From NCBI GenBank assembly GCA_019114445.1, contig DXFL01000012.1, positions 1,027-65,026 of the forward strand: a stretch of 64,000 nt of DNA. The letters run 5' to 3'. This document shows, one piece after another, positions 5,927 to 64,000 of the stretch. Below the pieces are notes generated by a model, which searched no databases, was not told where the DNA came from, and saw only the letters and a list, made by a program, of their open reading frames with translations. A program made the position numbers and the translations under genes. The stretch comes from Candidatus Barnesiella excrementigallinarum (GTDB taxonomy: Bacteria; Bacteroidota; Bacteroidia; Bacteroidales; Barnesiellaceae). Numbering within the stretch: position 1 is the first letter of the stretch; the number at the start of each line of letters is the position of its first letter.

Positions 5927-8140
5927 ATGCCCGAAAAAAACTATTTTACCCCCGAAGAAAAGGAGAATGTAAAACTGGTTTACCGGCAATTATTATTCCA
6001 TAGCAAACCGGTAATCTCGGTCAACGACTTCAATCGTATGCGGAGCCTCATCTCCGAAGCGGTTCAAACCGGGCATTACCAGCGAAACAAACAAGGCTTA
6101 AATCCCGTCGTGCGCAACCTCAATACGGCGCTTATCTTGTGCGACCGCGTGGGTTTGGAACGCAGTATGCTCATTTCGGTACTGCTGTTTAACTTGGTTG
6201 TCAGCGAATTCCTTTCGATCGAAGCCGTCGAAAAAGAGTTCGGCAGCGACATAGCCCAGCTTATTCGGGGACTTATCAAGTCGAACAGCCTGTATGCCAA
6301 ACAAGCGGCCGTCGAAAGCGAGAATTTCCGCAAGTTGTTGCTTTCCTTCGCCGAGGATATCCGGGTTATCATCATCATGATTGCCGACCGGCTGTGCGTG
6401 ATGAAAATGATCAACCACCACCCCAACGAGAAATACCGGTACGACGTAGCCTGCGAAGCTTCGTACCTCTATGCGCCGCTGGCTCACCGGCTGGGGCTTT
6501 ACTCCATCAAATCGGAGTTGGAAGACCTTTCGCTCAAATATACCAACCGCGAAATCTACGACCAAATAGCCCATAAACTCAACGAAACCAAGCGAAGCCG
6601 AGACCAGTATATCACCGAGTTTATCCAACCGGTAAAAGAGAAACTCGAAGCCGAAGGATTGAATTTCGAAATCAAAGGACGCACAAAATCCATCTTCTCC
6701 ATCTGGAACAAGATGAAAAAGCAAAAGGCCGACTTGGAAGACATTTACGACCTGTTTGCCATTCGCGTGATCCTCGACACTCCGCTCAACCAAGAGAAGG
6801 CCGACTGCTGGAAAGTCTACTCCATCATCACCGATATGTACCAGCCCAACCCCAAACGTATGAAGGACTGGTTATCCATTCCCAAATCGAACGGATACGA
6901 GTCGCTCCACATCACCGTACTGGGACCGGGACAACGCTGGGTAGAGGTACAGATCCGCACCCACAGAATGGACGAAATTGCCGAACGGGGACTGGCCGCC
7001 CACTGGAAATACAAAGGGATCAAAAGCGAATCCGGGCTGGACGACTGGATGAACAACGTGCGCGAAGTTCTCGAAGCTGCCGGGAACGGAGGGGCATTGG
7101 AACTTATGCGCGACTTCAAAATGGACCTCTACGACAAAGAGGTGTTTGTCTTTACCCCGAAAGGCGACTTGTACAAACTTCCGCTGGGAGCTACCCTACT
7201 CGATTTTGCCTTCCTTATCCACACAGGAATAGGATGCAAATGCGTAGGCGGCCGTGTGAACGGGAAAATAGAAACCATCAAATACAAACTCAAAAGCGGC
7301 GATACCATCGAGGTTCTCACCTCGCCCAACCAATCGCCCAAACAAGACTGGCTCAACATTGCCGCCACCTCCAAAGGTCGCGTAAAAATAAAACAGGCAC
7401 TCAACGAACAGCAAAACAAGGCGGCCGAATACGGGAAAGAATTGTTGCAACGAAGATTCAAAAACCGTAAAATGGAGATGGAAGACGGTGTGATGATGAA
7501 GCTCATCAAAAAAATGGGCTACAAAACCGCCACCGACTTTTACAACGAATTGGCCAGCGACCACATCGATGTCAACCGGGTAATCGAACTCTATCTCGAA
7601 ATAGACCGTAAAGAGAGCGGCGAAACATACGAGGCCCGTACCGCCGAAGAATTTACCTTGCAACACGAACACGACGAGACCAAAGAGGACGAACTGATCA
7701 TCGGTGGCGATGTAAAAGGGATAGACTACAAGCTGGCCAAATGTTGCAACCCCATCTTCGGCGACGACATATTCGGGTTCGTATCTACCGAGGGAACCAT
7801 TAAGATACACCGCAAGGATTGTCCCAATGCCCGCCACATATACAACCGTTACCGCTATCGGGTAGTCAATGCCCGCTGGTCGGGGAAAATGGGATCGAAA
7901 TATATTACGGTATTGCGGGTTGTGGGGAACGACGACATCGGTATCGTCACCAACATCACCTCGATTATTTCGAAAGAAAAGAACACCCATATGCGGGGAA
8001 TCTCCATCGACTCGAACGACGGCCTGTTTCAAGGGCACATTACCGTAGCGGTCGACGATACCTCCTCGCTCAACAGCCTCATTAAAAAGCTCAAAACGGT
8101 AAAAGGGGTAAAAGATGTACAACGAGGCTCGGTAAACTAA
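5927..8140 (+). CDS. relA: RelA/SpoT family (p)ppGpp synthetase
   Basis: 'APLAHRLG', 'GRTKSIFSI', 'DLFAIR', 'YESLH', 'EVQIRT', TGS 'FTPKGD', 'CCNPIFGD', C-terminal ACT. Confidence 0.93.
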   Translation: MPEKNYFTPEEKENVKLVYRQLLFHSKPVISVNDFNRMRSLISEAVQTGHYQRNKQGLNPVVRNLNTALILCDRVGLERSMLISVLLFNLVVSEFLSIEAVEKEFGSDIAQLIRGLIKSNSLYAKQAAVESENFRKLLLSFAEDIRVIIIMIADRLCVMKMINHHPNEKYRYDVACEASYLYAPLAHRLGLYSIKSELEDLSLKYTNREIYDQIAHKLNETKRSRDQYITEFIQPVKEKLEAEGLNFEIKGRTKSIFSIWNKMKKQKADLEDIYDLFAIRVILDTPLNQEKADCWKVYSIITDMYQPNPKRMKDWLSIPKSNGYESLHITVLGPGQRWVEVQIRTHRMDEIAERGLAAHWKYKGIKSESGLDDWMNNVREVLEAAGNGGALELMRDFKMDLYDKEVFVFTPKGDLYKLPLGATLLDFAFLIHTGIGCKCVGGRVNGKIETIKYKLKSGDTIEVLTSPNQSPKQDWLNIAATSKGRVKIKQALNEQQNKAAEYGKELLQRRFKNRKMEMEDGVMMKLIKKMGYKTATDFYNELASDHIDVNRVIELYLEIDRKESGETYEARTAEEFTLQHEHDETKEDELIIGGDVKGIDYKLAKCCNPIFGDDIFGFVSTEGTIKIHRKDCPNARHIYNRYRYRVVNARWSGKMGSKYITVLRVVGNDDIGIVTNITSIISKEKNTHMRGISIDSNDGLFQGHITVAVDDTSSLNSLIKKLKTVKGVKDVQRGSVN

Positions 8141-15290: not shown

Positions 15291-16235
15291 ATGGCAAAAA
15301 TTAGTCAAATACGACGCTTGGCAATCCTCATCAACAAACTGTCGGCAGTTCAATATGTGCCAACAGACGAGCTCATCTCGTATGTAGAGAACACACTGGC
15401 TCTGTACGACAATCAAGATGCAAATTATTCACAACGAACCATGCAACGCGATTTCGCCCTCATCGACGAAATATTCGGCATAGTCATTCGTAACGATAAA
15501 TCACGAGGATACTATATTGCCGCACTCGACGAAATGACCGATAATTACAAAGACCTGCTGCTCAACTTCGAGCTGCTCAGTTCTATCAATGCCGACAGTG
15601 TACTTCAAAAGTATGTCCTTGCCGAACATCGGCAGAATACCATACGCCACGAACTCATTGCTCCGTTATTGAAGGCAATACGAAAAAGAAATCCCATTGA
15701 ATTTGACTACACCTTGGTACGCCATAACGGGGAGATCATACACAAACAGCTCCTGCCTCACTTTTTGAAAGAGTCGCAACACCGCTGGTATCTCATCGGC
15801 TATGATACCGACGGCAAACTGAAAACGTTCGGGGTGGATCGCATCTCGACAATAAACGTCCTCGAGGGAACTCAATTCCACCGCAATGAACTCATAGATA
15901 TTCCTGCGCTCTTCCGAGAGAGTTACGGAATATGGAACACCCCCGAAGACCCAATCGAAGACATTATACTCAAATACGACTCGGTCGATGGAGCTTTTGT
16001 TAAAACGCTCCCCCTGCACCACTCACAGCAGATTCTTAGCGAAACCTCAACGGGAGTCACCATCAAACTGCGACTTCGTATCACCAACGATTTTGTGATG
16101 GAGTTGCTCTCCCGCAGCCGCTCGGTCGAAGTAATTGCCCCCCTCTCACTACGGACTCGCATATATGCCACCTTGCAACAGGCAGCCAATCGAAATAAAC
16201 CAAGCAAACCCGAAAGTGAAGAGAGAATCGACTAA
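15291..16235 (+). CDS. WYL domain transcriptional regulator (HTH-WYL-WCX)
   Basis: N-terminal wHTH 'SQRTMQRDF', 'LKESQHRWYLIG', 'KTFGVDRI', WCX 'LPLHHSQ'. Confidence 0.93.
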   Translation: MAKISQIRRLAILINKLSAVQYVPTDELISYVENTLALYDNQDANYSQRTMQRDFALIDEIFGIVIRNDKSRGYYIAALDEMTDNYKDLLLNFELLSSINADSVLQKYVLAEHRQNTIRHELIAPLLKAIRKRNPIEFDYTLVRHNGEIIHKQLLPHFLKESQHRWYLIGYDTDGKLKTFGVDRISTINVLEGTQFHRNELIDIPALFRESYGIWNTPEDPIEDIILKYDSVDGAFVKTLPLHHSQQILSETSTGVTIKLRLRITNDFVMELLSRSRSVEVIAPLSLRTRIYATLQQAANRNKPSKPESEERID

Positions 16236-16298
16236 ACGACATGATAAACAATACAAAAACACAATACCCCAAGATTTGTTATTGCAAAAAACATTTCA

Positions 16299-16306
16299 TA
16301 CCTTTG
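16299..16306 (+). promoter_or_regulatory. -7 box TACCTTTG upstream of the low-GC islet
   Basis: TAnnTTTG match overlapping an imperfect hairpin TGTCATGCGTGG/CCACGTGACA. Confidence 0.5.
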
Positions 16307-16573
16307 TCATGCGTGGTTCTCCACGTGACATAGTAGATAGATGAAAGTGTTAGCTTTTATTCTCGAATGGAAATCTGGTAAATTTCACTTGTACCGAGAA
16401 TAAGCAATAATATTCATCACCGTATGTAGTATCATCCTTGTTACTATAACGGTGTGGGGTATTGTTTATCGGTACAGGGCTTACCAGAGCCTCCATTCAA
16501 TAAACTAATGACTCCACACTTTCTTTTTTAAATGCTATCATAGGAGTCAGGGTAGCAAAGGAGGACGACTATT

Positions 16574-18556
16574 ATGGCAAAAATAGAAGAGATAATTAAT
16601 GCCGTTGACAACAAATTACTCGAGATGGGGAAAGACCATCTTATACTACAACAAGCGAGTAAACTCTTATTAGCATTAGGTATTATAGAAAACTCCAAGG
16701 AGTTAAAACAATTACTTGAAAAAGGGGAAATTCCTCATGCCTACAAGACAAATACGTCTCCAAAACAATGGATATTACCGCTTTCTGAGGAAAGAAAGAA
16801 TAGGAGGAACAAATTGAACAATAAGAAATACAACCTAACAACTATAAATATCATGAAACAAGTTAAACTGGTGTATGCAATTTTGGCAAGTTTAATCTTC
16901 ACGGCATGTTCAAAAACAGACAATAAATACGTTGAATACATACCTTTCCAAGAATTCGAGAATGGATTATGGGGAATGATTGCGCCTAATGGAGAAATCT
17001 TATTTTCCGAAGAATTCGAAGAAAAACCGACAGTTGTACACAACGGTAGATTCTTCATTCAAACAAACGATAGGACATGGGAAATGTACACAGCCGAAAA
17101 AAAGCCCCAACCTATAGGCAAAGAATATGCTCACATTTCTGGATTTCAAAACGGTGTTGCCGTTGTCTCCGAGAAAGGAAAGCCAGTCTCTATCATAGAC
17201 ACTGAAGGTAATACAATAAAAGTACTTGACTCAATTGCAGAGAAAAAAGTTCTTGGTGTCAGACCTTTCAAAAATAACTATGCTGTATTTATAACAACCG
17301 ACTCTCTTATGGGCGCGGTCAACAGAAATGGAATTTGTATTATAAAGCCGGAATACTATATTCTAAGCGAGTGTAGCGACAATAAATTCATCGGAATCCA
17401 CTCAAAGTATAGGAACAAAAATGAATTTATTATTTCAGTTATCAACACAACTGGGGAAACAAAACTTGAACTTCCACAAGATAAATGCAATCATATAGGA
17501 AGACTATATTTCTCTCATGGAATGTTAGCGGTCTGTGTAACAATAGGGAATCAGGAAAAGTGGGGTATCATAAACGATATGGGAGAATATGTGGTTAAAC
17601 CATCTTCAAAATTCAAGGAGATTGGTTCCATTTCTGAAAAATCATTTACTTATAATAATGGTGTAGGTTGGGGGTTAATGGGTATAGACGGTAAAACAAT
17701 GATTAGGCCTAAATACAAAGGTCTTTACCACGACCAAGAGAATCTACTATTAGCTAAAATTAAAAAAGATAGCATATATGAATACATATACATAGATGAC
17801 AAAGATAATCCTATTGAAAAAGAGAAATACAAATGGGTCTTCCCATTCTCACAATTAGACGGCGTTCATTCAATTGTAAATATTGATGATTACTTCTCAA
17901 TTATAAATAAAAAAGGAGAAAAAATAGAAAGACTCCCCAATATTACCAATATAGGATTCTCTGAGGGAGAGGACTTTATTGAAAGTGATTTTCTTGATTT
18001 GAACAATTTTATTTCCGAATTAAACATATCTCCCGATGGATTCATGGGGTTAACTTTTAAATCGACACCACAAGAAGCAGTCAAACTATCTGTTGAGTTC
18101 GGCAACTTTATAGGATATAGTAAGGATGAACCAGTTGATGATCCTATGTGGTATAATAACAACGACTATGTTAAAATTAAAAGGACTATAGGTAATATTG
18201 AAACACTAAGCTACATCAATTTTACAGGCAATCTGAGCAAAAAAATATACCATACAAAACGAGAACTTAATTATGATTACTGGAATGGATATTACTATTA
18301 TAGCGACAACAAGATTCCAGCGGGCTACAAATGGAGCGATGTTTCTCTCTCCAGTTTTACCTTATACATATATAATAGAGGAATAATGCATGGCAAATTA
18401 AATTCATTATTCTCAGCACTATCCGATAAATTCAAAACTTTTGGCACTGTAATCGAAGAACAAGAAGATTTTATTAAGCTAAAACTCAATAATACATATT
18501 CCGCCATTATTGTAGTTTCTGAAGATAACCTTGGAGTTTCTTGGGGGAATTTATAA
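16574..18556 (+). CDS. WG-repeat lipoprotein with extra ~93-aa N-terminal domain (alternative start 16853)
   Basis: 'LWGMIAPNG', 'KWGIINDMGEYVVKP', 'WGLMGIDGKTMIRPKY' repeats; lipoprotein signal MKQVKLVYAILASLIFTAC starts at codon 94; low GC. Confidence 0.75.
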   Translation: MAKIEEIINAVDNKLLEMGKDHLILQQASKLLLALGIIENSKELKQLLEKGEIPHAYKTNTSPKQWILPLSEERKNRRNKLNNKKYNLTTINIMKQVKLVYAILASLIFTACSKTDNKYVEYIPFQEFENGLWGMIAPNGEILFSEEFEEKPTVVHNGRFFIQTNDRTWEMYTAEKKPQPIGKEYAHISGFQNGVAVVSEKGKPVSIIDTEGNTIKVLDSIAEKKVLGVRPFKNNYAVFITTDSLMGAVNRNGICIIKPEYYILSECSDNKFIGIHSKYRNKNEFIISVINTTGETKLELPQDKCNHIGRLYFSHGMLAVCVTIGNQEKWGIINDMGEYVVKPSSKFKEIGSISEKSFTYNNGVGWGLMGIDGKTMIRPKYKGLYHDQENLLLAKIKKDSIYEYIYIDDKDNPIEKEKYKWVFPFSQLDGVHSIVNIDDYFSIINKKGEKIERLPNITNIGFSEGEDFIESDFLDLNNFISELNISPDGFMGLTFKSTPQEAVKLSVEFGNFIGYSKDEPVDDPMWYNNNDYVKIKRTIGNIETLSYINFTGNLSKKIYHTKRELNYDYWNGYYYYSDNKIPAGYKWSDVSLSSFTLYIYNRGIMHGKLNSLFSALSDKFKTFGTVIEEQEDFIKLKLNNTYSAIIVVSEDNLGVSWGNL

Positions 18557-18605
18557 CATATACAATATATTAGACGATAGCAATATTCAAATAATAATGT
18601 AAATC

Positions 18606-19409
18606 ATGAAGGGAAAAAAAGAATTTACAAAAGCCGAAATCGAACAATTGTTACAACTCATCAAAGAGAGAAAACAAACTCTATCGAGCAAACAAAAATC
18701 GATACGGGACAAAATGCGCAAACTGGGATTCTACGGAAGAGACGATTGGGGTATAACAGACTGCACTGAATCAGATTTAATGCAGTTGATAAACAATAGA
18801 AAAATAACCGTGAAAGATGACAATATAGACGAACCTAATCGCTCTTCATTTATATCAATAATGAAAAATAGTTGTATCGACAAAAATGGGAAAATAGCAA
18901 AAAGCCAACTAAATTATATAACTCCGAGATTCAAGACCATCGACGATTTGAAAACAGCCGGATTCGAGGGATTCGTTCCGGTAGCACAACTGAAAAACGA
19001 CAACTCGGCAATGCCCCAAGTGCCAGGGGTATACATGGTTGTCTATATGGGTAAAGGTATACCCGAATTTCTCTCACATGGCACAGGCGGTTTCTTTAAA
19101 GGGGAAGACCCCAATGTACCAATAGCCGAATTGAAATCGAACTGGATAGAAAACACTTGCGTAATCTACATTGGTCAAACTAAAACAACCATTCGCAAGC
19201 GAGTGAAAGATTATTTGAAATTTGGCTGTGGTCAAAAAGTAGGACATAAGGGAGGTCGTTACATTTGGCAAATAAAAGAATCAGACCAATTACTGTTCTG
19301 TTGGAAACCTACTCCTGATGAAGAACCTGACACAATTGAGAAATTACTCATCGCCCAATTCAAGGAACAATATGGTGGGCGACGACCGTTCGCCAATCTC
19401 AAAGACTAA
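18606..19409 (+). CDS. Putative GIY-YIG superfamily nuclease with N-terminal helical domain
   Basis: 'PGVYMV'...'YIGQT'...'IRKRVKDY'...'IEKLLIAQF'...'PFAN' follows the GIY-YIG-R-E-N pattern. Confidence 0.65.
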   Translation: MKGKKEFTKAEIEQLLQLIKERKQTLSSKQKSIRDKMRKLGFYGRDDWGITDCTESDLMQLINNRKITVKDDNIDEPNRSSFISIMKNSCIDKNGKIAKSQLNYITPRFKTIDDLKTAGFEGFVPVAQLKNDNSAMPQVPGVYMVVYMGKGIPEFLSHGTGGFFKGEDPNVPIAELKSNWIENTCVIYIGQTKTTIRKRVKDYLKFGCGQKVGHKGGRYIWQIKESDQLLFCWKPTPDEEPDTIEKLLIAQFKEQYGGRRPFANLKD

Positions 19410-40969: not shown

Positions 40970-42673
40970 ATGGCTAATTTCTTTTTAGACAACAGTGATC
41001 TGAAACATCACTTGCACCACCCGCTCATGGAGAAGCTGGTGGCTTTACGGGAACGGAACTACTCCGATGCCGAAAAATACGACTATGCGCCCTTCAACTT
41101 CGAGGACGCCATGGACAGTTATGAAAAGGTTCTCGAAATCGCCGGCGAAATCAGCGGCGAAATCGTAGCCGCCAATGCCGAAGACGTAGACCACGAAGGT
41201 CCCCATGTAGTCGACGGCCACGTAGTCTATGCCAAAGGCACGCAAAAGAACCTCGACGCTTTGGTAAAAGCCGGGTTGATGGGTATCTCTATGCCCCGCC
41301 GCTACAACGGCCTCAACTTCTCGCTCGTGCCCTACATCATGGCCGCCGATATGGTAAGCCGCGCCGACGCCGGCTTCGTAAACATTTGGGGCTTGCAAGA
41401 CTGCGCCGAGACCATCTACGAATTTGCCAGCGAAGAGCAAAAGCAGAAATACCTGCCCCGCGTATGCGCCGGTGAAACGATGGCTATGGACCTGACCGAG
41501 CCCGATGCCGGTTCGGACCTGCAAGCCGTCATGCTCAAAGCTACTTACAGCGAAGCCGACGGATGCTGGTACCTCAACGGTGTGAAACGCTTCATCACCA
41601 ACGGCGACGGACATATCGCCCTCGTACTGGCCCGCTCGGAAGAGGGAACCAAAGACGGCCGGGGCTTGTCGATGTTCATCTACGACCGCAACGACGGCGG
41701 CGTAACCGTTCGCCGTATCGAAAACAAGATGGGTATCAAAGGATCGCCCACCTGCGAACTCGTGTTCAAAAATGCCAAAGCCGAGCTTTGCGGCAGCCGC
41801 AAACTGGGATTGATCAAATACGTAATGGCCCTGATGAACGGCGCCCGCTTGGGTATCGCCGCCCAATCGGTAGGTGTATCGGAGGCCGCTTACCGCGAAG
41901 CCATCGCCTACGCCCGCGACCGCAAACAATTTGGCCAAGCCATTATCGAGTTCCCCGCCGTTTACGAAATGATTTCGTTGATGAAAGCCAAACTCGACGC
42001 TTCGCGTTCGTTGCTGTACGAGACCACCCGCTTCGTCGATATGTACAAGACCTACGAGGACATCGCCAAAGAGCGTTCGCTCGAACCCGAAGAACGGGCC
42101 GAGATGAAAGCCTACCAAAAACTGGCCGATGCCTTCACCCCCATGGCCAAAGGTATGTCGAGCGAATTTTGTAACCAAAACGCCTACGACTGCGTACAGG
42201 TACACGGCGGTTCGGGCTTCATGAAAGACTACGCCTGCGAACGTATCTACCGCGACGCCCGCATCACCTCGATCTACGAAGGTACTACCCAGTTGCAAGT
42301 CGTAGCCGCTATCCGCCACGTCACCACCGGTACCTACCTCCACCAAATCGAGGCTTACGAAGCTGCCACGATCGCTCCCGAACTGGAACCGCTGCGCGAC
42401 CGCCTCAAAGCCATGAGAGAGGCTTATGTAAAAGCTGTCGAATCGGTCACCGAGACCAAAGACAACGAATACATCGACTTTCAGGCTCGCCGTATGGTCG
42501 AGATGGCCGGACACATAATCATGGGTCACCTGCTGCTCGCCGACACCACGCGCAACGAATCGTTCCGCCGCTCGGCCGAGGTATATATCAACTTCGGAGA
42601 GGCCGAGGTGACCAAACACGCCGCCTTCATCGCTCACTCCAAACCCGAGATGATGGCCGACTACCGCAAATAA
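40970..42673 (+). CDS. Acyl-CoA dehydrogenase
   Basis: 'MDLTEPDAGSDL', 'LNGVKRFIT', 'KMGIKGSPT', 'QVHGGSG', 'IYEGTTQLQ'. Confidence 0.95.
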   Translation: MANFFLDNSDLKHHLHHPLMEKLVALRERNYSDAEKYDYAPFNFEDAMDSYEKVLEIAGEISGEIVAANAEDVDHEGPHVVDGHVVYAKGTQKNLDALVKAGLMGISMPRRYNGLNFSLVPYIMAADMVSRADAGFVNIWGLQDCAETIYEFASEEQKQKYLPRVCAGETMAMDLTEPDAGSDLQAVMLKATYSEADGCWYLNGVKRFITNGDGHIALVLARSEEGTKDGRGLSMFIYDRNDGGVTVRRIENKMGIKGSPTCELVFKNAKAELCGSRKLGLIKYVMALMNGARLGIAAQSVGVSEAAYREAIAYARDRKQFGQAIIEFPAVYEMISLMKAKLDASRSLLYETTRFVDMYKTYEDIAKERSLEPEERAEMKAYQKLADAFTPMAKGMSSEFCNQNAYDCVQVHGGSGFMKDYACERIYRDARITSIYEGTTQLQVVAAIRHVTTGTYLHQIEAYEAATIAPELEPLRDRLKAMREAYVKAVESVTETKDNEYIDFQARRMVEMAGHIIMGHLLLADTTRNESFRRSAEVYINFGEAEVTKHAAFIAHSKPEMMADYRK

Positions 42674-42693
42674 TGCGAACCTAACTCATCACA

Positions 42694-42730
42694 AAATGGG
42701 CTGTTCCGAATCCTTCGAAACAGCCCATTT
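42694..42730 (+). terminator. Terminator-like hairpin after the acyl-CoA dehydrogenase gene
   Basis: AAATGGGCTGTT...AACAGCCCATTT. Confidence 0.7.
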
Positions 42731-42745
42731 GATTTTTAGGGGTTT

Positions 42746-43344
42746 GGTTATTCCGCACTGCGACGGTTCTGTCATTCCGCGCTTGATGCGGAATCCAGGA
42801 ATATTGGCAGAGGAATGCACTCTACCGGGTCCCGCCGCTTGGTCATTCCGCACTTGATGCGGAATCCAGAAATACCGGCAGGGGTACCTGCAAAATACAT
42901 TTCCCTTTGTGGCTCCACGCTGGACCCCGCATCGGGGTGCGGGGTGACGAGTACGTTTCCCTCGCCTTCCCCACGCTGGACCCCGCGGTTCTGTCATTCC
43001 GCGCTACGACGCGGAATCCATGAATACCGGCAGAGGGGAATACCTACAAGAGGCACTCTACCGGGTTCCGCCGTTCTGTCATTCCGCGCTACGACGCGGA
43101 ATCTAGGAATACCGGCAGGGGTACATTTCCCTTTGCGACCCTACCGGGTCCCGCCGTTCTGTCATTCCGCGCCACGACGCGGAATCTATATTACCGGCAG
43201 GGGGGTACTCACAAATGAATGCCTCGCCTTCCCCCGACTGGATCCCGCATCGGGGTGCGGGGTGACACGCTGGCGGCCCTACACAAGAGGCACTCTACTG
43301 GACCCCGCATCGCTGTGCGGGGTGACACGGTAGTGCGGGATGAC
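42746..43344. repeat. Mosaic cluster of GTC-tagged REP-like palindromes (BIME/NIME-like)
   Basis: Forward units GTCATTCCGC-N7/8-GCGGAATCYA at 42771, 42842, 42993, 43078, 43161; inverted units TGGAYCCCGC-N8-GCGGGGTGAC at 42921, 43239, 43299; partial units at 42746, 42977, 43333. Confidence 0.9.
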
Positions 43345-43554
43345 GTCCTCGTTCCCTATGCGACAGGGACAAAAAAAAGATCGACACAATACCCACTAAG
43401 CAAATATAAAATAATAATATTATAAAAGCAACGGTTTGAAGCATTTAATAATAAAAATATGGTATTCTTAAAAAATCGTAAATTTTTATTTATCCCCAAA
43501 TAGACGTTTCTCTTACAAGCAATCGGGGGCTATCTTTACCCCAAAATCGACGAT

Positions 43555-44928
43555 ATGGCTACACACGACTGTCACCACATGGTAAATCTGCAAAAAGCAT
43601 TTTTCAACGAACACATCACCCGCGAGATTCCTTTCAGGCTGTGCGCCCTCGACCGGCTCGCCGAAGGCATTGCCTCCCGCGAAGGCCAACTGAGCGCAGC
43701 GCTGCGCGCCGACTTGGGGAAGTCGCCTTTCGAGAGTTATGCCACCGAAACCGGGTTCCTCCTGCACGAGATACGCACGTTCAAAAATAACCTGCAACGC
43801 TGGGCTCGCGACCGGCGGCGTCCTACCCCCATGTTCCTCTTCGGTGCCAAAAGCCGCATCCATTACGAGCCTTACGGCTGTGTGCTCATTATCGCTCCGT
43901 GGAACTATCCGCTGCAACTGGCCCTGTCACCTTTGGTGGGCGCCATCGCCGCGGGGAACTGCGCCATCGTGAAACCGTCGGGCGAAGCGCCCCGCACAGC
44001 CGAAGCCCTGCAAGAACTCATCGGCGAATGTTTCGAAGAGGAGTATATCGCCGTGACCGACGCCCGGCGGGAGACAACCGAGGAGTTGTTGCAAGAACGG
44101 TTCGACTACATATTCTACACCGGCGGCGTCGAGTACGGACGGCAGGTCATGCAGGCTGCCGCACAACACCTTACCCCCGTGACCCTCGAACTGGGCGGGA
44201 AAAGCCCTTGCATCGTCGACGACGACGCCCACCTGACTACGGCGGCACAACGGATCGTATGGGGCAAATTCCTTAATTGCGGACAAACGTGCGTCGCCCC
44301 CGACTACCTGATGGTTCACCGCAGCATACAACAACCGCTCATTGAACAGATAACGGATGAAATCTCACGGCAATACGGCGAAAACCCGCAACTCAGCCCC
44401 GACTATCCCCGCATCGTCAACGACCGCCATTTCGAACGGCTGGCCGCCCTCCTCACGCACGGCACGGCCCTCTGCGGAGGATTTTACGACCCTACCGACC
44501 GCTATATCGCCCCTACACTGCTCACCGATATAGACCCGCAATCGCCCTTGCTCACCGACGAAATTTTCGGGCCTATCCTCCCCGTGATTCCTTTCGACGA
44601 CATCGACGACTGCGTGGAGTATGTAAACCAACGGGAAAAACCGCTCGCCCTCTACTATTTTACCCAAAGTCGCAAACGGGCCCGCTACATGATACAGCAC
44701 ACCTCGTCGGGCGGCGCCTGCATCAACGACACGATACTCCAAACGGCCAACAGCAACCTGCCCTTCGGCGGCATAGGCAACAGCGGCATGGGGGCTTATC
44801 ACGGCCGTACGAGTTTCGAGACATTCAGCCACCAACGGGGCATTGTACAGTCGGCCACCCACCTCTACTCCAACTTCAAATTCCCGCCCTACGGCGACAA
44901 GCTGAAATGGCTGAAACGGCTGATGTAA
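43555..44928 (+). CDS. NAD(P)-dependent aldehyde dehydrogenase (ALDH3-like)
   Basis: 'IAPWNYP', 'FYTGG', 'ELGGKSP', 'GQTCVAPDY', 'EIFGPILP', 'LPFGGIGNSG'. Confidence 0.95.
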   Translation: MATHDCHHMVNLQKAFFNEHITREIPFRLCALDRLAEGIASREGQLSAALRADLGKSPFESYATETGFLLHEIRTFKNNLQRWARDRRRPTPMFLFGAKSRIHYEPYGCVLIIAPWNYPLQLALSPLVGAIAAGNCAIVKPSGEAPRTAEALQELIGECFEEEYIAVTDARRETTEELLQERFDYIFYTGGVEYGRQVMQAAAQHLTPVTLELGGKSPCIVDDDAHLTTAAQRIVWGKFLNCGQTCVAPDYLMVHRSIQQPLIEQITDEISRQYGENPQLSPDYPRIVNDRHFERLAALLTHGTALCGGFYDPTDRYIAPTLLTDIDPQSPLLTDEIFGPILPVIPFDDIDDCVEYVNQREKPLALYYFTQSRKRARYMIQHTSSGGACINDTILQTANSNLPFGGIGNSGMGAYHGRTSFETFSHQRGIVQSATHLYSNFKFPPYGDKLKWLKRLM

Positions 44929-60885: not shown

Positions 60886-61797
60886 ATGGCAACTAGTAAC
60901 TTTAGAATTAAAAAGATTTGTGAGTGGTGCGGTAAAGAATTCGAGGCTCAGAAAGTTTCTACAAGGTTCTGTTCACACAGGTGTGCAAATTTTGCCTATA
61001 AACGGGCCATACGCAAAAAACGAGTGCAGACAACAGAGTCACAAACTCAAGTTCAGAAAACTGAACGCATCATTGAAGACATTAAGGAGAAGGAATATCT
61101 TTCCTTTTCAGAAACAGGACGTCTGTTAGGTCTATCTCGCCAAGCTATCTATACCATGGTAAAGGCAGGTCACCTTAAAACGTCTAAAATTAGCAGTAGG
61201 CTTTCATTTATCAGGAGGACTGATATTGATGCTATGCTTCAAAATAAGCCTTATCAATATCGAATGCCCAAAGATACAATCCCTATCACAGACTTCTATA
61301 CCACCAATGAGATTAAAGAGAAATTCGGTGTCAAAGATTCCTGGATATTTCATATAGCTAAAGAGCATAATATACCCCGGACATTTAACCGTGGGAAAAC
61401 CTATTGGAGCAAAAAGCATATTGATGACTACTTTGCAAAGAAAGCTCCCGATCCTGAAATCAAGGAATGGTACAGCACGCAAGATATGCAGGAGAAGTTC
61501 GGCATGACACTAACGGCCATCTATTCTTTTGTATCAAAGAATGCCATTCCTAAAAAGAAAGTCGGCATCATGGTGTTCTACTCCAAAAAGCATGTCGACA
61601 TTGCCAAAGGCCTCATAGCTCCCGAAGAGCCCAAATACTACACCATTGCCGAAGCGATGGAACGATTCAAACTGACACGGGATCAACTCTACCATTATGT
61701 AAAATACCATAATATCGCCCGTATCAAAGTCGGTAAATATACCAAGATCCTGCGGGCAGAGCTGGACAAGTTCTTTGAGCCTCCAAAGATAGAATGA
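60886..61797 (+). CDS. Excisionase-like protein: Zn finger + four HTH_17/Xis-like domains
   Basis: 'CEWCG...FCSHRC', then 'YLSFSETGRLLG', 'FYTTNEIKEKFG', 'WYSTQDMQEKFG', 'YYTIAEAMERFK' repeats. Confidence 0.8.
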   Translation: MATSNFRIKKICEWCGKEFEAQKVSTRFCSHRCANFAYKRAIRKKRVQTTESQTQVQKTERIIEDIKEKEYLSFSETGRLLGLSRQAIYTMVKAGHLKTSKISSRLSFIRRTDIDAMLQNKPYQYRMPKDTIPITDFYTTNEIKEKFGVKDSWIFHIAKEHNIPRTFNRGKTYWSKKHIDDYFAKKAPDPEIKEWYSTQDMQEKFGMTLTAIYSFVSKNAIPKKKVGIMVFYSKKHVDIAKGLIAPEEPKYYTIAEAMERFKLTRDQLYHYVKYHNIARIKVGKYTKILRAELDKFFEPPKIE

Positions 61798-61889
61798 GCC
61801 GAAAGTTATTTTCCGGTGATAAATACCACCATTAGAACACCTATTTTATTTGCAACAAAAACAAGTATTAATCAGAAAACAATATAACT

Positions 61890-62849
61890 ATGACACTTAC
61901 ATGCACCAACGTAACACTGAGACAAAAGCCATTGCGTAACGACCGCATATCTCTTTATCTGGATTATTATCCGGCCATCCGCAATCCTTACACGATGAAG
62001 ATGAGTCGCCGGGAATTCCTCGGCATTTACATCTATGCCAAGCCAAAGAATGAGCAGCAAAGAATGTTCAATCAGGATATGCTGAACAAGGCAGAGGCAA
62101 TCCGCTGTATCCGTGTACAGTCGCTTATCAATGAAGAATTCGGGTTCCTGGACAAGAACAAGCAAAAGGTAGATTTCCTCGCCTACTTCCGAACAAAGGC
62201 ACGGCAAAAATATGAGAAATGGGATTGCGTTTACAACCACTTCGAGAAATTTGTCGGCGGTAAATGCACCTTTGGCGATGTCACCGTGGAACTGTGCGAG
62301 AAATTCAGGGATTACCTGCTCAAATGTAAACAGATCAATCATCCCAATGCTTACATCTCACGCAATTCGGCCGCTGGCTATTATTCAACTTTCCGAGCCT
62401 TGTTGAAGATAGCCTACAAAGAGAAGATGCTGCGTGAGAACTTGAACGACTTTCTGGAAAAAATCGAATGGAAAGAGGTCAAGAAAGAGTATCTGACACT
62501 TGATGAAGTCAAGAAATTGGCAGCTACGCCATGCAAGATTCCAGTCTTGAAACAGGCCTCCTTGTTTGCCTGCATGACCGGCCTCCGTATCAGTGATATT
62601 CTGAAGCTGGACTGGCGTGATTTTGAAGTCGGCCCAGATCAAGGCTACTACATCCGTATCTGTACCGAGAAAACGGAAACCGAGGCAACCCTCCCCATCA
62701 GTCAGGAGGCACTGGAGTTGTGTGGCGAATGGGGCACCGGAAAAGTCTTCAAAGGCTTAACCCGCTCCATGACTCATCATCCCCTGAAACAGTGGATAGC
62801 CGAAGCCGGAATCAGAAAACACATAACCTTCCACTGCTTTAGGCATTAA
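61890..62849 (+). pseudogene. Tyrosine site-specific integrase truncated after HCFRH (no catalytic Tyr)
   Basis: Arm domain 'LYLDYYP', SAM-like middle, 'TGLRISDI', ends 'KHITFHCFRH*'. Confidence 0.85.
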
Positions 62850-62978
62850 TATATTATTACTTGCTGAAAATAAAGACTTTGCAATAATTGTTTTTTAGAC
62901 AGGTAACGATTTAGAAACGAGCGATGTTCCACTATCTGTTAAATTTTGCATTATACCCAAAGAACGCTATTTTAGTTA

Positions 62979-62986
62979 CAAATATA
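62979..62986 (-). promoter_or_regulatory. Outward-facing -7 box TATATTTG, followed by boxA-like GTTCTTTG (62958-62965)
   Basis: + strand CAAATATA and CAAAGAAC. Confidence 0.45.
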
Positions 62987-63138
62987 ACAATAAATTAGTA
63001 TAATACAATTAAGATCCATATTAATTTATCTAGTAACATATAATTTGATAATATATATTTCATAAGTTAATTCTATCAAAATCAATTGTAAATTATCATT
63101 ATTAGAATACCTTTGTATTATATTAAGGGGTTTTACAT

Positions 63139-64000
63139 ATGAGCAAAATCAATATAGATAGAATTGTTAAGGATATTAAATCCAAAACAACAAGTTTAAC
63201 ACCAATCATAGAAGCTGTTTGTAATTCAATTGATGCTATAGGCTCTGAAAGGACAGATGGCATTATTGATATTGTGATTAAGCGTAACCCTCAACAATTG
63301 TTAGCTTTAGATTCTTCTCACTCTCTACCTGAAATTGTTTCTATTGATATTATAGATAATGGAGAAGGTTTTACAGAAGAAAATAAAGATTCTTTCGATA
63401 CTTATAGAAGTGGATTAAAAATTTCAAAAGGCGGTAAGGGATTTGGACGTTTTATGTATTTGAAATATTTCAATCATGTGTCTATTGAAAGTATTTTTTA
63501 CGAAGAATATAGATATAAACGGCGCTCTTTTACATTTGGGCATGCTGATGAAATCATTGAAGATGAAACTATTGAATGTCTTGAATACAATGAGGGTATA
63601 CATTCAGGAACTATCCTACATTTAGAATCGATAAAAGAACATGATTTAGACAAAGGAATTGATGTAATTGCTAGAAAATTAGTTGAACGTTTACTAGTTT
63701 TTTTCGTAACTGGTGGAATTCATACACCTAAAATTACAATTAGGGAAGAAGATGAATCCAATTCAATCGTGTTAAATAATTATATTGGGAAAGATTCTGA
63801 TATTCAAAAAGTTGGTTATGATGAATCTATAACTCTACATGGAAAAGATAGTGATTGGACTTTTACTGTAAAAATATATAAAATATATTATTCTGCAATA
63901 ACTAATAAGATCTGTTTAACAGCTAACATGAGAGAAGTTACAGATTCTGCGATACATAATTATATCCCAGAATTTAAAGAGCCAATGTTTGAATTGACTG
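63139..64000 (+). CDS. GHKL (HATPase_c, MORC/MutL/Hsp90-like) ATPase, 5' part (runs off window end)
   Basis: Not in ORF track; hand translation open to the window end: MSKINIDRIVKDIKSKTTSLTPIIEAVCNSIDA...IIDNGEGF...KGGKGFGRF...SGT (ExxxNxxDA, DxGxG, GxxGxG). Confidence 0.85.
   Translation, partial: MSKINIDRIVKDIKSKTTSLTPIIEAVCNSIDAIGSERTDGIIDIVIKRNPQQLLALDSSHSLPEIVSIDIIDNGEGFTEENKDSFDTYRSGLKISKGGKGFGRFMYLKYFNHVSIESIFYEEYRYKRRSFTFGHADEIIEDETIECLEYNEGIHSGTILHLESIKEHDLDKGIDVIARKLVERLLVFFVTGGIHTPKITIREEDESNSIVLNNYIGKDSDIQKVGYDESITLHGKDSDWTFTVKIYKIYYSAITNKICLTANMREVTDSAIHNYIPEFKEPMFELT

Follow-up and report, generated by a model that had tools for sequence, protein, structure and literature searches.

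A gap of about 600 bases between two metabolic genes of a chicken-gut Barnesiella is occupied by an array of short hairpin repeats (42747-43344). The window, that is, the whole 64-kb stretch of DNA that was analysed, contains eight matches to GTCAYYCCGC-N5-10-GCGGRRT, all within 42771-43326, and dinucleotide-preserving shuffles gave none; a looser pattern scan retrieved no further hairpin copy in the rest of the window. The array is not an assembly artefact, since two independent public assemblies carry it without any difference. The features of the region are as follows:

40970..42673, + strand, acyl-CoA dehydrogenase (ACAD), last gene of an ETF-beta / ETF-alpha / ACAD set by Pfam families (context only)
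42694..42737, + strand, intrinsic-terminator-like hairpin of the ACAD gene, with 17-nt arms, a 3-nt loop and then GATTTTT (inverted repeat, 94% complementary)
42747..42770, + strand, partial copy: 5' half-hairpin GTTATTCCGCAC (the half itself at 42747-42764) and spacer TGCGACGGTTCT, abutting hairpin 1 upstream
42771..42798, + strand, hairpin 1: GTC-ATTCCGCG-CTTGA-TGCGGAAT-CCAG, with one G.T wobble (ssDNA fold -8.1 kcal/mol)
42815..43333, + strand, 172-aa ORF through the repeats, in public assemblies a 158-aa gene call with no Pfam match; most likely not a gene
42828..42841, + strand, degenerate 5' half GGTCCCGCC and spacer GCTTG, upstream of hairpin 2 (from repeat families)
42842..42869, + strand, hairpin 2: GTCATTCCGCACTTGATGCGGAATCCAG, stem ATTCCGCA/TGCGGAAT, loop CTTGA (ssDNA fold -9.5 kcal/mol, z = -4.7)
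42920..42948, - strand, hairpin 3: CGTC-ACCCCGCA-CCCCGA-TGCGGGGT-CCAG, which fits the published SRM pattern
42976..42992, + strand, partial copy CTGGACCCCGCG (the half itself at 42976-42987), fused to the GTTCT spacer of hairpin 4
42982..43203, + strand, 83-nt tandem repeat, 2.7 copies, which includes hairpins 4-6 together with the flanking sequence (Tandem Repeats Finder: score 282, 83% matches)
42993..43021, + strand, hairpin 4: GTC-ATTCCGCG-CTACGA-CGCGGAAT-CCAT
43078..43106, + strand, hairpin 5: stem and loop as in hairpin 4 (ATTCCGCG/CGCGGAAT, CTACGA), tail CTAG
43161..43189, + strand, hairpin 6: loop CCACGA, tail CTAT
43238..43266, - strand, hairpin 7: ACCCCGCA/TGCGGGAT, with one C.A mismatch, the weakest copy (ssDNA fold -6.6 kcal/mol, z = -1.5)
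43298..43326, - strand, hairpin 8: ACCCCGCA-CAGCGA-TGCGGGGT
43327..43344, - strand, 5' half GTCATCCCGC (partial copy 43335-43344) and 8-nt spacer ACTACCGT, abutting hairpin 8 upstream on the - strand
43555..44928, + strand, aldehyde dehydrogenase, with some 190 nt of AT-rich DNA before it (context only)

The ACAD protein is 98% identical to those of Barnesiella viscericola and Ca. B. excrementavium. The array begins only downstream of the terminator-like hairpin of this gene, a hairpin absent from the list of a simple terminator scan. Five full copies lie on the + strand and three on the - strand. The preliminary description had counted eight full and three partial copies; the pattern scan gave the same full count, and the partial copies lie where it had placed them (42747-42764, 42976-42987 and 43335-43344); further degenerate halves, GGTYCCGCC, number three or more (near 42828, 43064 and 43147). 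Gaps between copies are irregular (32-57 nt) and the spacers are mutually related; with these features, and with copies in both orientations, a CRISPR array was rejected. A tRNA-like minihelix with a CCA end was dropped, as neither loop nor stem has a suitable length. The idea that the loop contains a nick site for a rolling-circle Rep (CTTG/A) was also discarded, since the half copies are truncated at varying points and the nuclease Ssn, which is introduced below, does not need the loop.

The putative unit is 27-28 nt long: GTC as an unpaired tag, then a stem of 8 bp with A-T as its first pair, a loop of 5-6 nt and, as tail, C(C/T)A. All eight copies have stems of 8 bp whose first pair is A-T, the second being T-A in the five forward copies and C-G in the three reverse ones. 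Loops of 5-6 nt and tails of CCA or CTA had been correctly described, and can now be specified as 5 nt in two copies (CTTGA) and 6 nt in six (of the form CNNCGA), with CCA in six copies and CTA in two. The tag is GTC throughout, as had been noted, but the literal CGTC occurs in one copy only: the preceding base is T in six copies, C in one and G in one, so that the others read TGTC or GGTC. GTC upstream and a C directly after the last T of the stem are present in 8/8 copies. Predicted ssDNA folds of the eight hairpins range from -6.6 to -9.5 kcal/mol. Covariation of three stem positions with the GTC tag and the C(C/T)A tail fixed, which had been proposed from the window copies, was recovered in them and in a larger hairpin sample. 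The three free positions are paired in 58/59, 58/59 and 55 (plus three G.T) of 59 distinct hairpins, against 46, 30 and 18 in shuffles. Among 46 distinct hairpins with 6-nt loops, 98.9% of cells were paired, and two-sided changes numbered 51 versus 21 +/- 4 after shuffling, a value reached in 0 of 500 shuffles.

The hairpin array is real, yet the repeat type is already known. Judged by its sequence, the array belongs to a described superfamily, the CGTC-tagged REPs, which includes Neisseria NTS/dRS3 and the Ssn-related motifs (SRM). Hairpin 2 is, letter for letter, a 28-mer retrieved from dozens of phyla in a scan of public sequences; exact matches, also across the loop, come from Ignavibacteria, Nitrospirota, Planctomycetes, CPR, Flavobacteriia, Rickettsia, Wolbachia, Prevotella, Bacteroides and Barnesiella. 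Such repeats had been said to be described mainly in Proteobacteria, a statement at odds with this distribution and with Di Nocera 2013 (PMC3733652), where Bacteroidetes already figure among the host phyla. The anatomy agrees with the earlier reading of a REP-like hairpin array shaped like CGTC-type REPs and Neisseria dRS3, except for the strict dRS3 pattern: the likeness to dRS3 is a general one, but ATTCCC-N8-GGGAAT is absent from 42746-43344, also when 2 mismatches are allowed.

According to Di Nocera 2013 (PMC3733652), CGTC REPs carry a tag (often TGTC, with CCTC also allowed), an 8-9-bp stem with A-T-type first and second pairs, a loop of 4-5 nt and a CCA tail. The array resembles CGTC-1 to CGTC-4 in its TGTC-type tag, 8-bp stem, first A-T pair, CCA tail and intergenic position. 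The absence of an adjacent transposase and the Bacteroidetes hosts are shared as well, and so are the head-to-head hetero-dimers at related loci. In contrast to the published families, six window copies have a loop of 6 nt, the reverse subtype has C-G as its second stem pair, and the window holds a dense cluster of eight, whereas clusters are there called rare. Barnesiella and Prevotella are not among the hosts mentioned in the consulted passages of that paper. The 6-nt loop is a common subtype among Bacteroidales and other metagenome loci.

About half of the dRS3 copies take an extended form, which is NTS (CGTCATTCCCGCGMAVGCGGGAATCYRG; Chenal et al. 2025, PMC11893778). SRM/NTS and the array have in common a (C/T)GTC tag, a stem starting ATTCC/ATCCC/ACCCC..GC, a short loop, a C right after the palindrome followed by YRG, an oriented element, and an arrangement in intergenic clusters and inverted pairs (PMC11893778); they differ in that most window loops are 6 nt long. 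The SRM pattern HGTCWYN(0-2)YYVSBRHN(0-5)WNVSBRGN(0-2)RNCYNB fits three of the eight copies, the reverse ones, while shuffles gave 0.44 matches per window. The window stem ATTCCGCG is one C-G pair shorter than the NTS stem ATTCCCGCG, and the five forward copies therefore miss the published pattern, having GCGGAAT, without a third G, in place of GCGGGAAT. The mosaic of hairpin repeats and a few short repeated spacer modules is also seen in Neisseria dRS3 / NIME, where a phage or Piv/IS110 link exists, unlike at the window array, where none was seen. Rickettsia and Wolbachia loci retrieved in the scan have the tag, stem core and tail of the Barnesiella hairpins. Rickettsia palindromic elements (RPEs) are about 100-150 bp long and often lie inside genes; in both respects they differ from the Barnesiella copies, which are shorter and intergenic. 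Di Nocera 2013 (PMC3733652) assigns the ends of RPEs to the CGTC class.

The protein partner of these repeats is the reason why the phrase 'little-studied REP family' used in the preliminary description does not stand: the NTS/SRM-Ssn pairing has been described by Chenal et al. 2025 (PMC11893778). Ssn is a single-domain GIY-YIG (cd10448) nuclease of about 95 aa that binds the folded NTS/SRM hairpin as ssDNA only and on one strand only; its cut falls in the variable flank, a few nt before the GTC tag (PMC11893778). Binding depends critically on the C after the palindrome, and cleavage on three nt upstream (PMC11893778); in the window, these are the positions of the fixed tail and tag. SsnA showed no binding to the RNA form, and 71% of ssn genes are flanked by SRMs (PMC11893778). 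The mobiliser had been called unknown; a partner nuclease is now described, and the statement holds only in the narrow sense of how copies spread, because the nuclease alone does not explain how copies reach new loci. Altering the stem sequence with the hairpin kept abolished the activity of the Neisseria enzyme (PMC11893778). Any Barnesiella enzyme would therefore need a specificity of its own, perhaps two, for the ATTCCGCG and ACCCCGCA stems; if it exists, such a new specificity would be of practical interest for ssDNA tools. We know of no natural competence in the gut Bacteroidales host, and the transformation-control role found in Neisseria may therefore not apply here. In Neisseria, that role has been shown for NTS/SsnA (PMC11893778).

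Small GIY-YIG genes do sit beside these hairpins elsewhere, so their inclusion among the genes to check was a correct lead. Small GIY-YIG ORFs (PF01541, 94-103 aa) were found at 7 of about 240 hairpin loci, with hairpins 4-59 nt away in six of the seven; at one of them (L091), hairpins lie on both sides, and two further Bacteroidota GIY-YIG genes that were looked up were both bracketed by inverted hairpins. The loci with a hairpin-GIY-YIG association are L091, L012, L053, L134, L139, L237, L259 and L261. The most window-like case is L259, from environmental Bacteroidetes, whose loops CTACGA and CCACGA are those of the window. When 2767 ORFs from within 2 kb of hairpins were compared all-against-all by BLAST, the top recurrent family, at 9/240 loci, was one of ordinary size (971 aa), and the GIY-YIG family was missed because its proteins are short and divergent. 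Examination of ORFs and Pfam matches agrees with the earlier statement that no candidate enzyme adjoins the array in the window. Neither the 64-kb window nor roughly 120 kb of Barnesiella-type loci, a small part of the genome, yielded an Ssn-like gene, and no Barnesiella GIY-YIG protein was named among the relatives listed in two GIY-YIG-seeded homologue searches (375 and 7448 relatives, many of them from Bacteroidota). A PDB search retrieved no solved Ssn structure, the nearest entries being UPF0213 GIY-YIG proteins (E = 2.5e-4).

The history of the site can be followed in sister strains, which have a different terminator at the position of the ACAD terminator and then one hairpin. In two of them (L245 and L250) the orthologous site carries a single hairpin, that of L250 having the stem and loop of hairpin 4; in six sister contigs (L246-249, 251 and 252) it carries a decayed hairpin, and in 88%-identity relatives no hairpin was found at this site. 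One hairpin at the same spot in sister strains shows that the array grew in place, and to judge from the 83-nt tandem triplication, this growth proceeded partly by local duplication. Barnesiella-type hairpins also occur at many unlinked metagenome loci and on L100, L245 and L248, mostly as hetero-dimers with head-to-head gaps of 4-8 nt, and a hairpin identical to hairpin 8 is present in Ca. Barnesiella merdipullorum (L100). A neighbouring intergenic region holds 0, 1 or 2 hairpin dimers depending on the strain. This polymorphism between near-identical strains suggests recent activity of the family. When empty and filled sites of B. viscericola-like strains were aligned (L246/L247 versus L248/L245), the intergenic region differed throughout, and only a 128-nt tandem duplication was clear.

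We favour, with a probability of about 0.72, the interpretation that the array is a mosaic SRM cluster (that is, of CGTC-tagged REPs, relatives of NTS/dRS3) that has grown in place and is putatively read as ssDNA by Ssn. A founder copy, which lies behind the ACAD terminator in sister strains, gave rise to the array by tandem duplication and by shuffling of two hairpin modules. By analogy with what has been established elsewhere, the element would act as ssDNA, bound by Ssn and nicked on one strand upstream of the tag; the copies may be recognised by an Ssn encoded elsewhere in the genome, or may have been in a recent ancestor. The array would have no role at the RNA level. An unlikely alternative is that these are orphan, decaying repeats, the leftovers of an SRM-Ssn element since lost or received only as DNA, which grow purely by hairpin-promoted slippage and unequal recombination and which no protein reads now. 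The decay of the orthologous copy in six sister contigs, the mismatch in copy 7 and the wobble in copy 1 are consistent with it, and the 83-nt tandem repeat and mosaic spacers are the products expected of slippage and recombination. A GIY-YIG gene was seen in no Barnesiella-type sequence examined, but the search for the nuclease covered only a small fraction of the genome. It also fits this alternative that 19% of genomes with more than 200 SRMs are without an SsnA homologue (PMC11893778). Against decay, seven of the eight stems are intact, three positions are compensatory between subtypes, tag and tail are retained in 8/8 copies, and the strain polymorphism points to recent activity. If such a nuclease is indeed lacking, the array may persist and expand in a genome without any Ssn.

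The preliminary description had left open whether the hairpin is recognised as ssDNA or RNA. The ssDNA part stands, but the RNA part is disfavoured by the lack of RNA binding by Ssn, the position of the terminator and the absence of a clear orientation bias. It is very improbable that the hairpins work in transcripts, where they would stabilise 3' ends, terminate transcription or insulate the ACAD operon from the aldehyde dehydrogenase gene, a type of role that has been suggested for many REPs. The array is intergenic and 3' of a gene, its predicted hairpins are stable, and according to Di Nocera 2013 (PMC3733652), many REPs follow ORFs and may plausibly be transcribed. However, an intrinsic-terminator-like hairpin with its T run precedes the array, and in the direction of the upstream gene none of its own eight hairpins is followed by such a run, as a terminator would be. 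Both orientations occur in a single array, in which an asymmetric tag and tail would read differently. Across phyla, single copies have the orientation of the upstream gene in 41 cases and the opposite one in 31; divergent genes flank 19 copies (14 single, 5 in dimers), and a crude ORF call puts 18 within ORFs. Rfam gave no match to the array, the scan of 42000-44000 (E <= 1) returning only a chance miRNA match over the terminator. The location behind a terminator and the 41:31 orientation point to a role at the level of DNA rather than RNA.

Mobilisation by a RAYT (Y1 HUH transposase), which would make these classical REPs/REPINs like the GTAG REPs/BIMEs of Proteobacteria, has very little to recommend it. 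Both consist of short palindromes with a tag, probably have the inverted doublet as their unit and form mosaic clusters, and GTAG REP / RAYT systems resemble SRM-Ssn in ssDNA recognition and in repeats that flank the gene of their own enzyme. RAYT groups specific to Bacteroidetes are known, and TnpA-Y1 subclass 2.6, mostly from Bacteroidetes, is flanked by 'atypical secondary structures' (Quentin 2018). Nevertheless, the tag is GTC and not GTAG, and the known partner is a GIY-YIG nuclease, whereas the E. coli and Pseudomonas systems have a Y1 HUH transposase. A motif scan found no HUH...Y-motif ORF in 1.84 Mb around 388 hairpins, the small GIY-YIG proteins were the sole recurrent neighbour family, and no CGTC repeats flanking a tyrosine transposase gene were found by Di Nocera 2013 (PMC3733652). 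We also give hardly any credence to the view that the hairpins serve above all as sites where IS110/Piv-type recombinases act or phages integrate. Such use is established for Neisseria dRS3 and for GTAG REPs (IS1111, IS621), and a tyrosine integrase gene lies 17 kb away, but no IS110-type gene is present in the window, and among 388 full hairpins and 147 orphan halves, an insert between matching halves was seen only once, in a dubious case. As a secondary use, it would leave the conserved tag, tail and loop unexplained.

One feature of the favoured SRM cluster is possibly a new detail. Truncated 5' half-hairpins with a 6-10-nt spacer stack in tandem exclusively on the GTC side of full copies, i.e. 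the side that Ssn cuts, in many phyla; the 'half + spacer + full' arrangement of 42747..42798 recurs in many of them, and the window contains five or six cases. Orphan 5' halves were followed by a full copy within 60 nt in 27/86 cases, while in the mirror arrangement only 1/61 orphan 3' halves followed a full copy. The cutting polarity of Ssn may drive this one-sided accumulation. There is some small chance that the growth of SRM arrays is polar and linked to cutting by Ssn ('cut upstream, re-copy to hairpin apex'); if so, the Barnesiella array would be a snapshot of repeat multiplication, a question left open by Chenal et al. 2025. The one-sided pile-up is a cheap and testable clue to that multiplication. 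Ssn was characterised only in 2025, mainly in Neisseria, and the present data place gut Bacteroidales (Barnesiella and, by the scan, also Prevotella and Bacteroides) among the hosts of SRM/CGTC REPs.

As copy number varies between near-identical strains, such arrays are usable as strain markers. They are also miscalled as genes, like the 158-aa 'protein' here, and break short-read assemblies. Contigs from four chicken-gut runs break inside the array, with excess contig depth on the hairpin modules, and many foreign contigs map to these modules, which are therefore multi-copy.

The whole array lies in the 881-nt gap between an acyl-CoA dehydrogenase (ACAD) gene and an aldehyde dehydrogenase (Aldedh) gene.

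40970-42673, + strand, ACAD gene, flanking the array upstream
42694-42737, terminator-like hairpin of 17 bp with a T run; the array starts only beyond it
42747-42764, 42976-42987 and 43335-43344, partial hairpin copies
42982-43203, tandem repeat with an 83-nt unit, 2.7 copies
before hairpins 2, 5 and 6, weaker halves, GGTYCCGCC
43555-44928, + strand, Aldedh gene, flanking the array downstream

The pattern GTCAYYCCGC-N5-10-GCGGRRT was matched eight times in the 64-kb window, always within 42771-43326, and never in dinucleotide-preserving shuffles. The eight full and three partial GTC-tagged hairpins of the preliminary description are confirmed. A looser pattern scan of the 64 kb retrieved no extra copies outside the array. 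Five copies are on the + strand, with the stem ATTCCGCG or ATTCCGCA, and three on the - strand, with the stem ACCCCGCA. The loop is CTTGA in two of the eight and has 6 nt, of the form CNNCGA, in six; tails are CCA (six copies) or CTA (two). The stem of copy 1 contains a G.T wobble and that of copy 7 a C.A mismatch. All eight are predicted to fold as ssDNA; copy 7 reaches -6.6 kcal/mol and the other seven -8.1 to -9.5 kcal/mol. The spacers between hairpins are a mosaic of a few short modules (repeat families D3-D8), and ~190 nt of AT-rich DNA separates the 3' end of the array from Aldedh. The array is identical between two independent public assemblies. An ORF of 172 aa runs through it (42815-43333, +), where public assemblies call a 158-aa gene; this call has no Pfam family, and the repeats have most likely misled the gene calling here.

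In Di Nocera et al. (2013, PMC3733652), CGTC-tagged REPs have a tag that is often TGTC, an 8-9-bp stem beginning A-T, a short loop and a CCA tail; they are mostly head-to-head dimers, occur in five phyla including Bacteroidetes and are described there without an associated transposase. The window hairpins share this overall anatomy. The resemblance to CGTC REPs noted earlier is thus upheld, and the strict pattern of Neisseria dRS3, the other relative proposed, is absent from the array. dRS3 has since been extended to a 28-nt oriented element, NTS (CGTCATTCCCGCGMAVGCGGGAATCYRG), and generalized as Ssn-related motifs (SRMs), which across bacteria flank ssnA, a 94-aa single-domain GIY-YIG gene; 71% of ssnA homologues have a motif nearby and 42% on both sides (Chenal et al. 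2025, PMC11893778). The nuclease SsnA recognizes the hairpin as ssDNA alone, and on just one strand; dsDNA and RNA are not bound. The C right after the palindrome is key to binding and the three upstream bases to cleavage, and the loop sequence is dispensable (PMC11893778). The forward stem of the window equals that of NTS minus one C-G pair, and the published degenerate SRM pattern matches the three reverse copies, the five forward ones missing it by a single base. By analogy, the fixed GTC tag and tail C of the window hairpins are the putative Ssn functional positions. The array is a gut Bacteroidales representative of an already described hairpin element, and the 'unknown mobiliser' of the preliminary description is outdated, Chenal et al. 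having identified Ssn as the partner nuclease.

The array lies beyond a terminator-like hairpin with both orientations mixed, none of its eight hairpins is followed by a T run, and it matches no Rfam family. Across phyla, single copies are oriented with or against the upstream gene in a ratio of 41:31, and 19 copies (14 single, five in dimers) lie between divergent genes. Because of the position past the terminator, the mixed orientations, the missing T runs and Rfam match, the 41:31 ratio and the indifference of SsnA to RNA, we conclude, from sequence and analogy, that the element is probably read as ssDNA. Of the 'ssDNA/RNA hairpin' originally proposed, the ssDNA part is kept and the RNA part is judged unlikely.

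In a cross-species scan with one genome per species, at least 120 stretches contained the hairpin. Among the matches listed were Ignavibacteria, Nitrospirota, Planctomycetes, Patescibacteria, Cloacimonadota, Flavobacteriia, Alpha-, Gamma- and Deltaproteobacteria, Rickettsia, Wolbachia, Methylotuvimicrobium, Prevotella, Bacteroides, Mediterranea and Barnesiella; with these phyla, and with Bacteroidetes already in Di Nocera et al., a scope of mainly Proteobacteria proved too narrow. The commonest form among the matches listed, GTCATTCCGCACTTGATGCGGAATCCAG, is window copy 2, loop included, and the flanks of the cross-phylum hairpins are unrelated. Stem positions left free by the pattern pair in 58/59, 58/59 and 55/59 (plus three G.T) distinct sequences, against 46, 30 and 18 in shuffles; stem position 8 alone shows four pair types. 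Among 6-nt-loop hairpins from metagenomes (46 distinct ones), pairing holds in 98.9% of cells, falling to 29-37% when the partner is slid by one column, and two-sided changes number 51 against 21 +/- 4 in shuffles, a value reached by 0/500 of them. Given this near-complete pairing across phyla, the stem covariation first noticed in the window holds in a much larger sample. The whole IMG/VR collection of viral contigs yielded only 21 stretches with the hairpin (L262-L282), every one of which has the common consensus and lacks a GIY-YIG gene nearby; the family looks essentially chromosomal, not phage-borne.

In a Prevotella-type element of ~145 bp, GTCATTCCGCGCTCCGACGCGGAATCCAG is present twice in inverted orientation, the copies lying ~36-45 nt from each other and each being extended by a conserved outer arm of ~22 nt (ttcaagcggtcagttggtaact). 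The element occurs at nine human-gut loci (L003, L058, L106, L112, L122, L127, L140, L144 and L146) and many others from the human gut, its hairpin making up 47 of the 6-nt-loop matches listed, and resembles a MITE with the same hairpin at its core. Long-period tandem arrays have one or two hairpins per unit at L208 (six copies, ~455-nt period), L195 (83-nt period) and L237, and L012 has five units of ~300 nt adjoining a GIY-YIG gene. As every long unit contains hairpins, these also ride on larger repeated units.

A motif scan of 1.84 Mb around hairpins detected no RAYT-like ORFs, and BLAST clustering of ORFs near hairpins gave no enriched neighbour family. A profile from one small ORF cluster retrieved ORFs of 94-103 aa in seven of ~240 hairpin loci, and the full-length ones scanned match PF01541. 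In six of the seven loci, GTC-tagged hairpins lie 4-59 nt from the gene, which is bracketed on both sides in L091, adjoins an NTS-type stem (ATTCCCGC-GCAA-GCGGGAAT) in L053 and sits inside long hairpin arrays in L012 and L237. The nearest solved structures, of weak similarity, are UPF0213 GIY-YIG proteins. Homologues of ~95 aa (P0121-P0240) are 65-76% identical across Omnitrophica, Ignavibacteria, CPR, Flavobacterium and Gammaproteobacteria; this fits the cross-phylum identity of the hairpins and suggests that gene and site have spread horizontally together. Most lie on contigs of only 0.5-3 kb, which suggests assembly breaks at flanking repeats. A second seed retrieved mostly Bacteroidota (Labilibaculum, Maribellus, Sunxiuqinia, Mucilaginibacter, Christiangramia and Lutibacter), and two of these genes, checked on their contigs, lie between inverted hairpins. 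The window loops CTACGA and CCACGA recur in the hairpins around one of the two, which comes from an environmental Bacteroidetes and not Barnesiella.

No GIY-YIG gene was found in the 64-kb window, which agrees with the earlier remark that no candidate enzyme lies beside the array; the genes of the window are ordinary housekeeping ones plus an integrase at 61.9 kb. Nor was one found in the Barnesiella-type hairpin loci. That the repeats are orphans, persisting without their nuclease, is an unlikely explanation that keeps some weight because the gene was not found in the Barnesiella sequence searched. The array may persist in this way, or may record how these repeats multiply.

The window ACAD protein is 98% identical to those of Barnesiella viscericola, Ca. 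B. excrementavium and Barnesiella sp. An55, and the region was recovered from chicken-gut and other gut or manure metagenome runs. On sister-lineage contigs, the same gap has only ~220 nt, a terminator and then one hairpin, which is intact in L250 (CGTC-ATTCCGCG-CTACGA-CGCGGAAT-CCAG-GAATACC, matching window copies 4 and 5 in stem, loop and 3' extension), slightly damaged in L245 and decayed in six other contigs. Relatives at 88% protein identity have only a terminator there and a different downstream gene. A single founder copy thus stood behind the terminator and grew to eight in the window lineage, at least partly via tandem duplication. The next intergenic gap, Aldedh-UvrD, holds zero, two or four hairpins in B. 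viscericola-like strains with an identical ACAD protein: its versions (L245-L248, ~6290-6710) have none, one hetero-dimer, or two through a 128-nt tandem duplication, and in the empty one the intergenic sequence is unrelated apart from a tail-like remnant, CCAATCCCCGAATACC. Since ~20 unlinked metagenome loci and Ca. B. merdipullorum (L100) also carry hairpins of the Barnesiella type with the same 3' extensions, the motif is not unique to this locus. The extension is CCAG-RAATACCSGGCA in ATTCCGCG-type and CCAG-AGRGGAAGGCG in ACCCCGCA-type hairpins; copies are usually hetero-dimers, paired tail-to-tail ~40-65 nt apart, and neighbouring pairs are joined head-to-head by 4-8 nt.

Of 86 orphan 5' halves (GTCAYYCCGC not belonging to a full hairpin), 27 have a complete hairpin after them within 60 nt and only two have one before them; for orphan 3' halves, a full hairpin was found in 1/61 on either side. 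A stricter count of the arrangement gave 14 against 3 (controls 2-3). Each tandem unit of ~19-21 or 28 nt consists of one 5' half, which ends at or just past the loop, and a spacer of 6-10 nt; such units are found in unrelated phyla (L013, L016, L075, L054, L164 and L107) and before most full window copies. A symmetric hairpin effect would load both sides equally. The pile-up is on the tag side, where Ssn cuts; hypothetically, a cut upstream of the tag could be followed by re-copying as far as the hairpin apex. Because the truncation points of the halves vary, a nick at one fixed place in the loop is unlikely.

The bottom strand of the consensus hairpin (e.g. 42842-42869, -) reads ...ATCAAGTGCGGAAT... 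and contains AAGTGCGG, 8/9 bases of the Haemophilus uptake signal core, AAGTGCGGT. This may be coincidence, and is perhaps worth attention given the link between Ssn and transformation in Neisseria. Elsewhere in the window, GC skew of the + strand is negative throughout 1-64000 although most genes are on + and AT skew is positive; the skew seems to follow coding-strand composition and is unusable for inferring replication direction. At 15291-19409, the lowest-GC part of the window interior (0.37-0.40), a WYL-domain protein matching PADLOC WYL models precedes proteins of 660 and 267 aa, in which no Pfam or PADLOC family was detected; the stretch may be a small accessory or defence island. At 60886-64000, GC drops to 0.36 beyond the genes for an HTH_17 protein and a tyrosine integrase. 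The 15 differences from a second assembly (matching stretch 42587-63909) are all confined to 61970-62735, and an integrated element probably has its border here.
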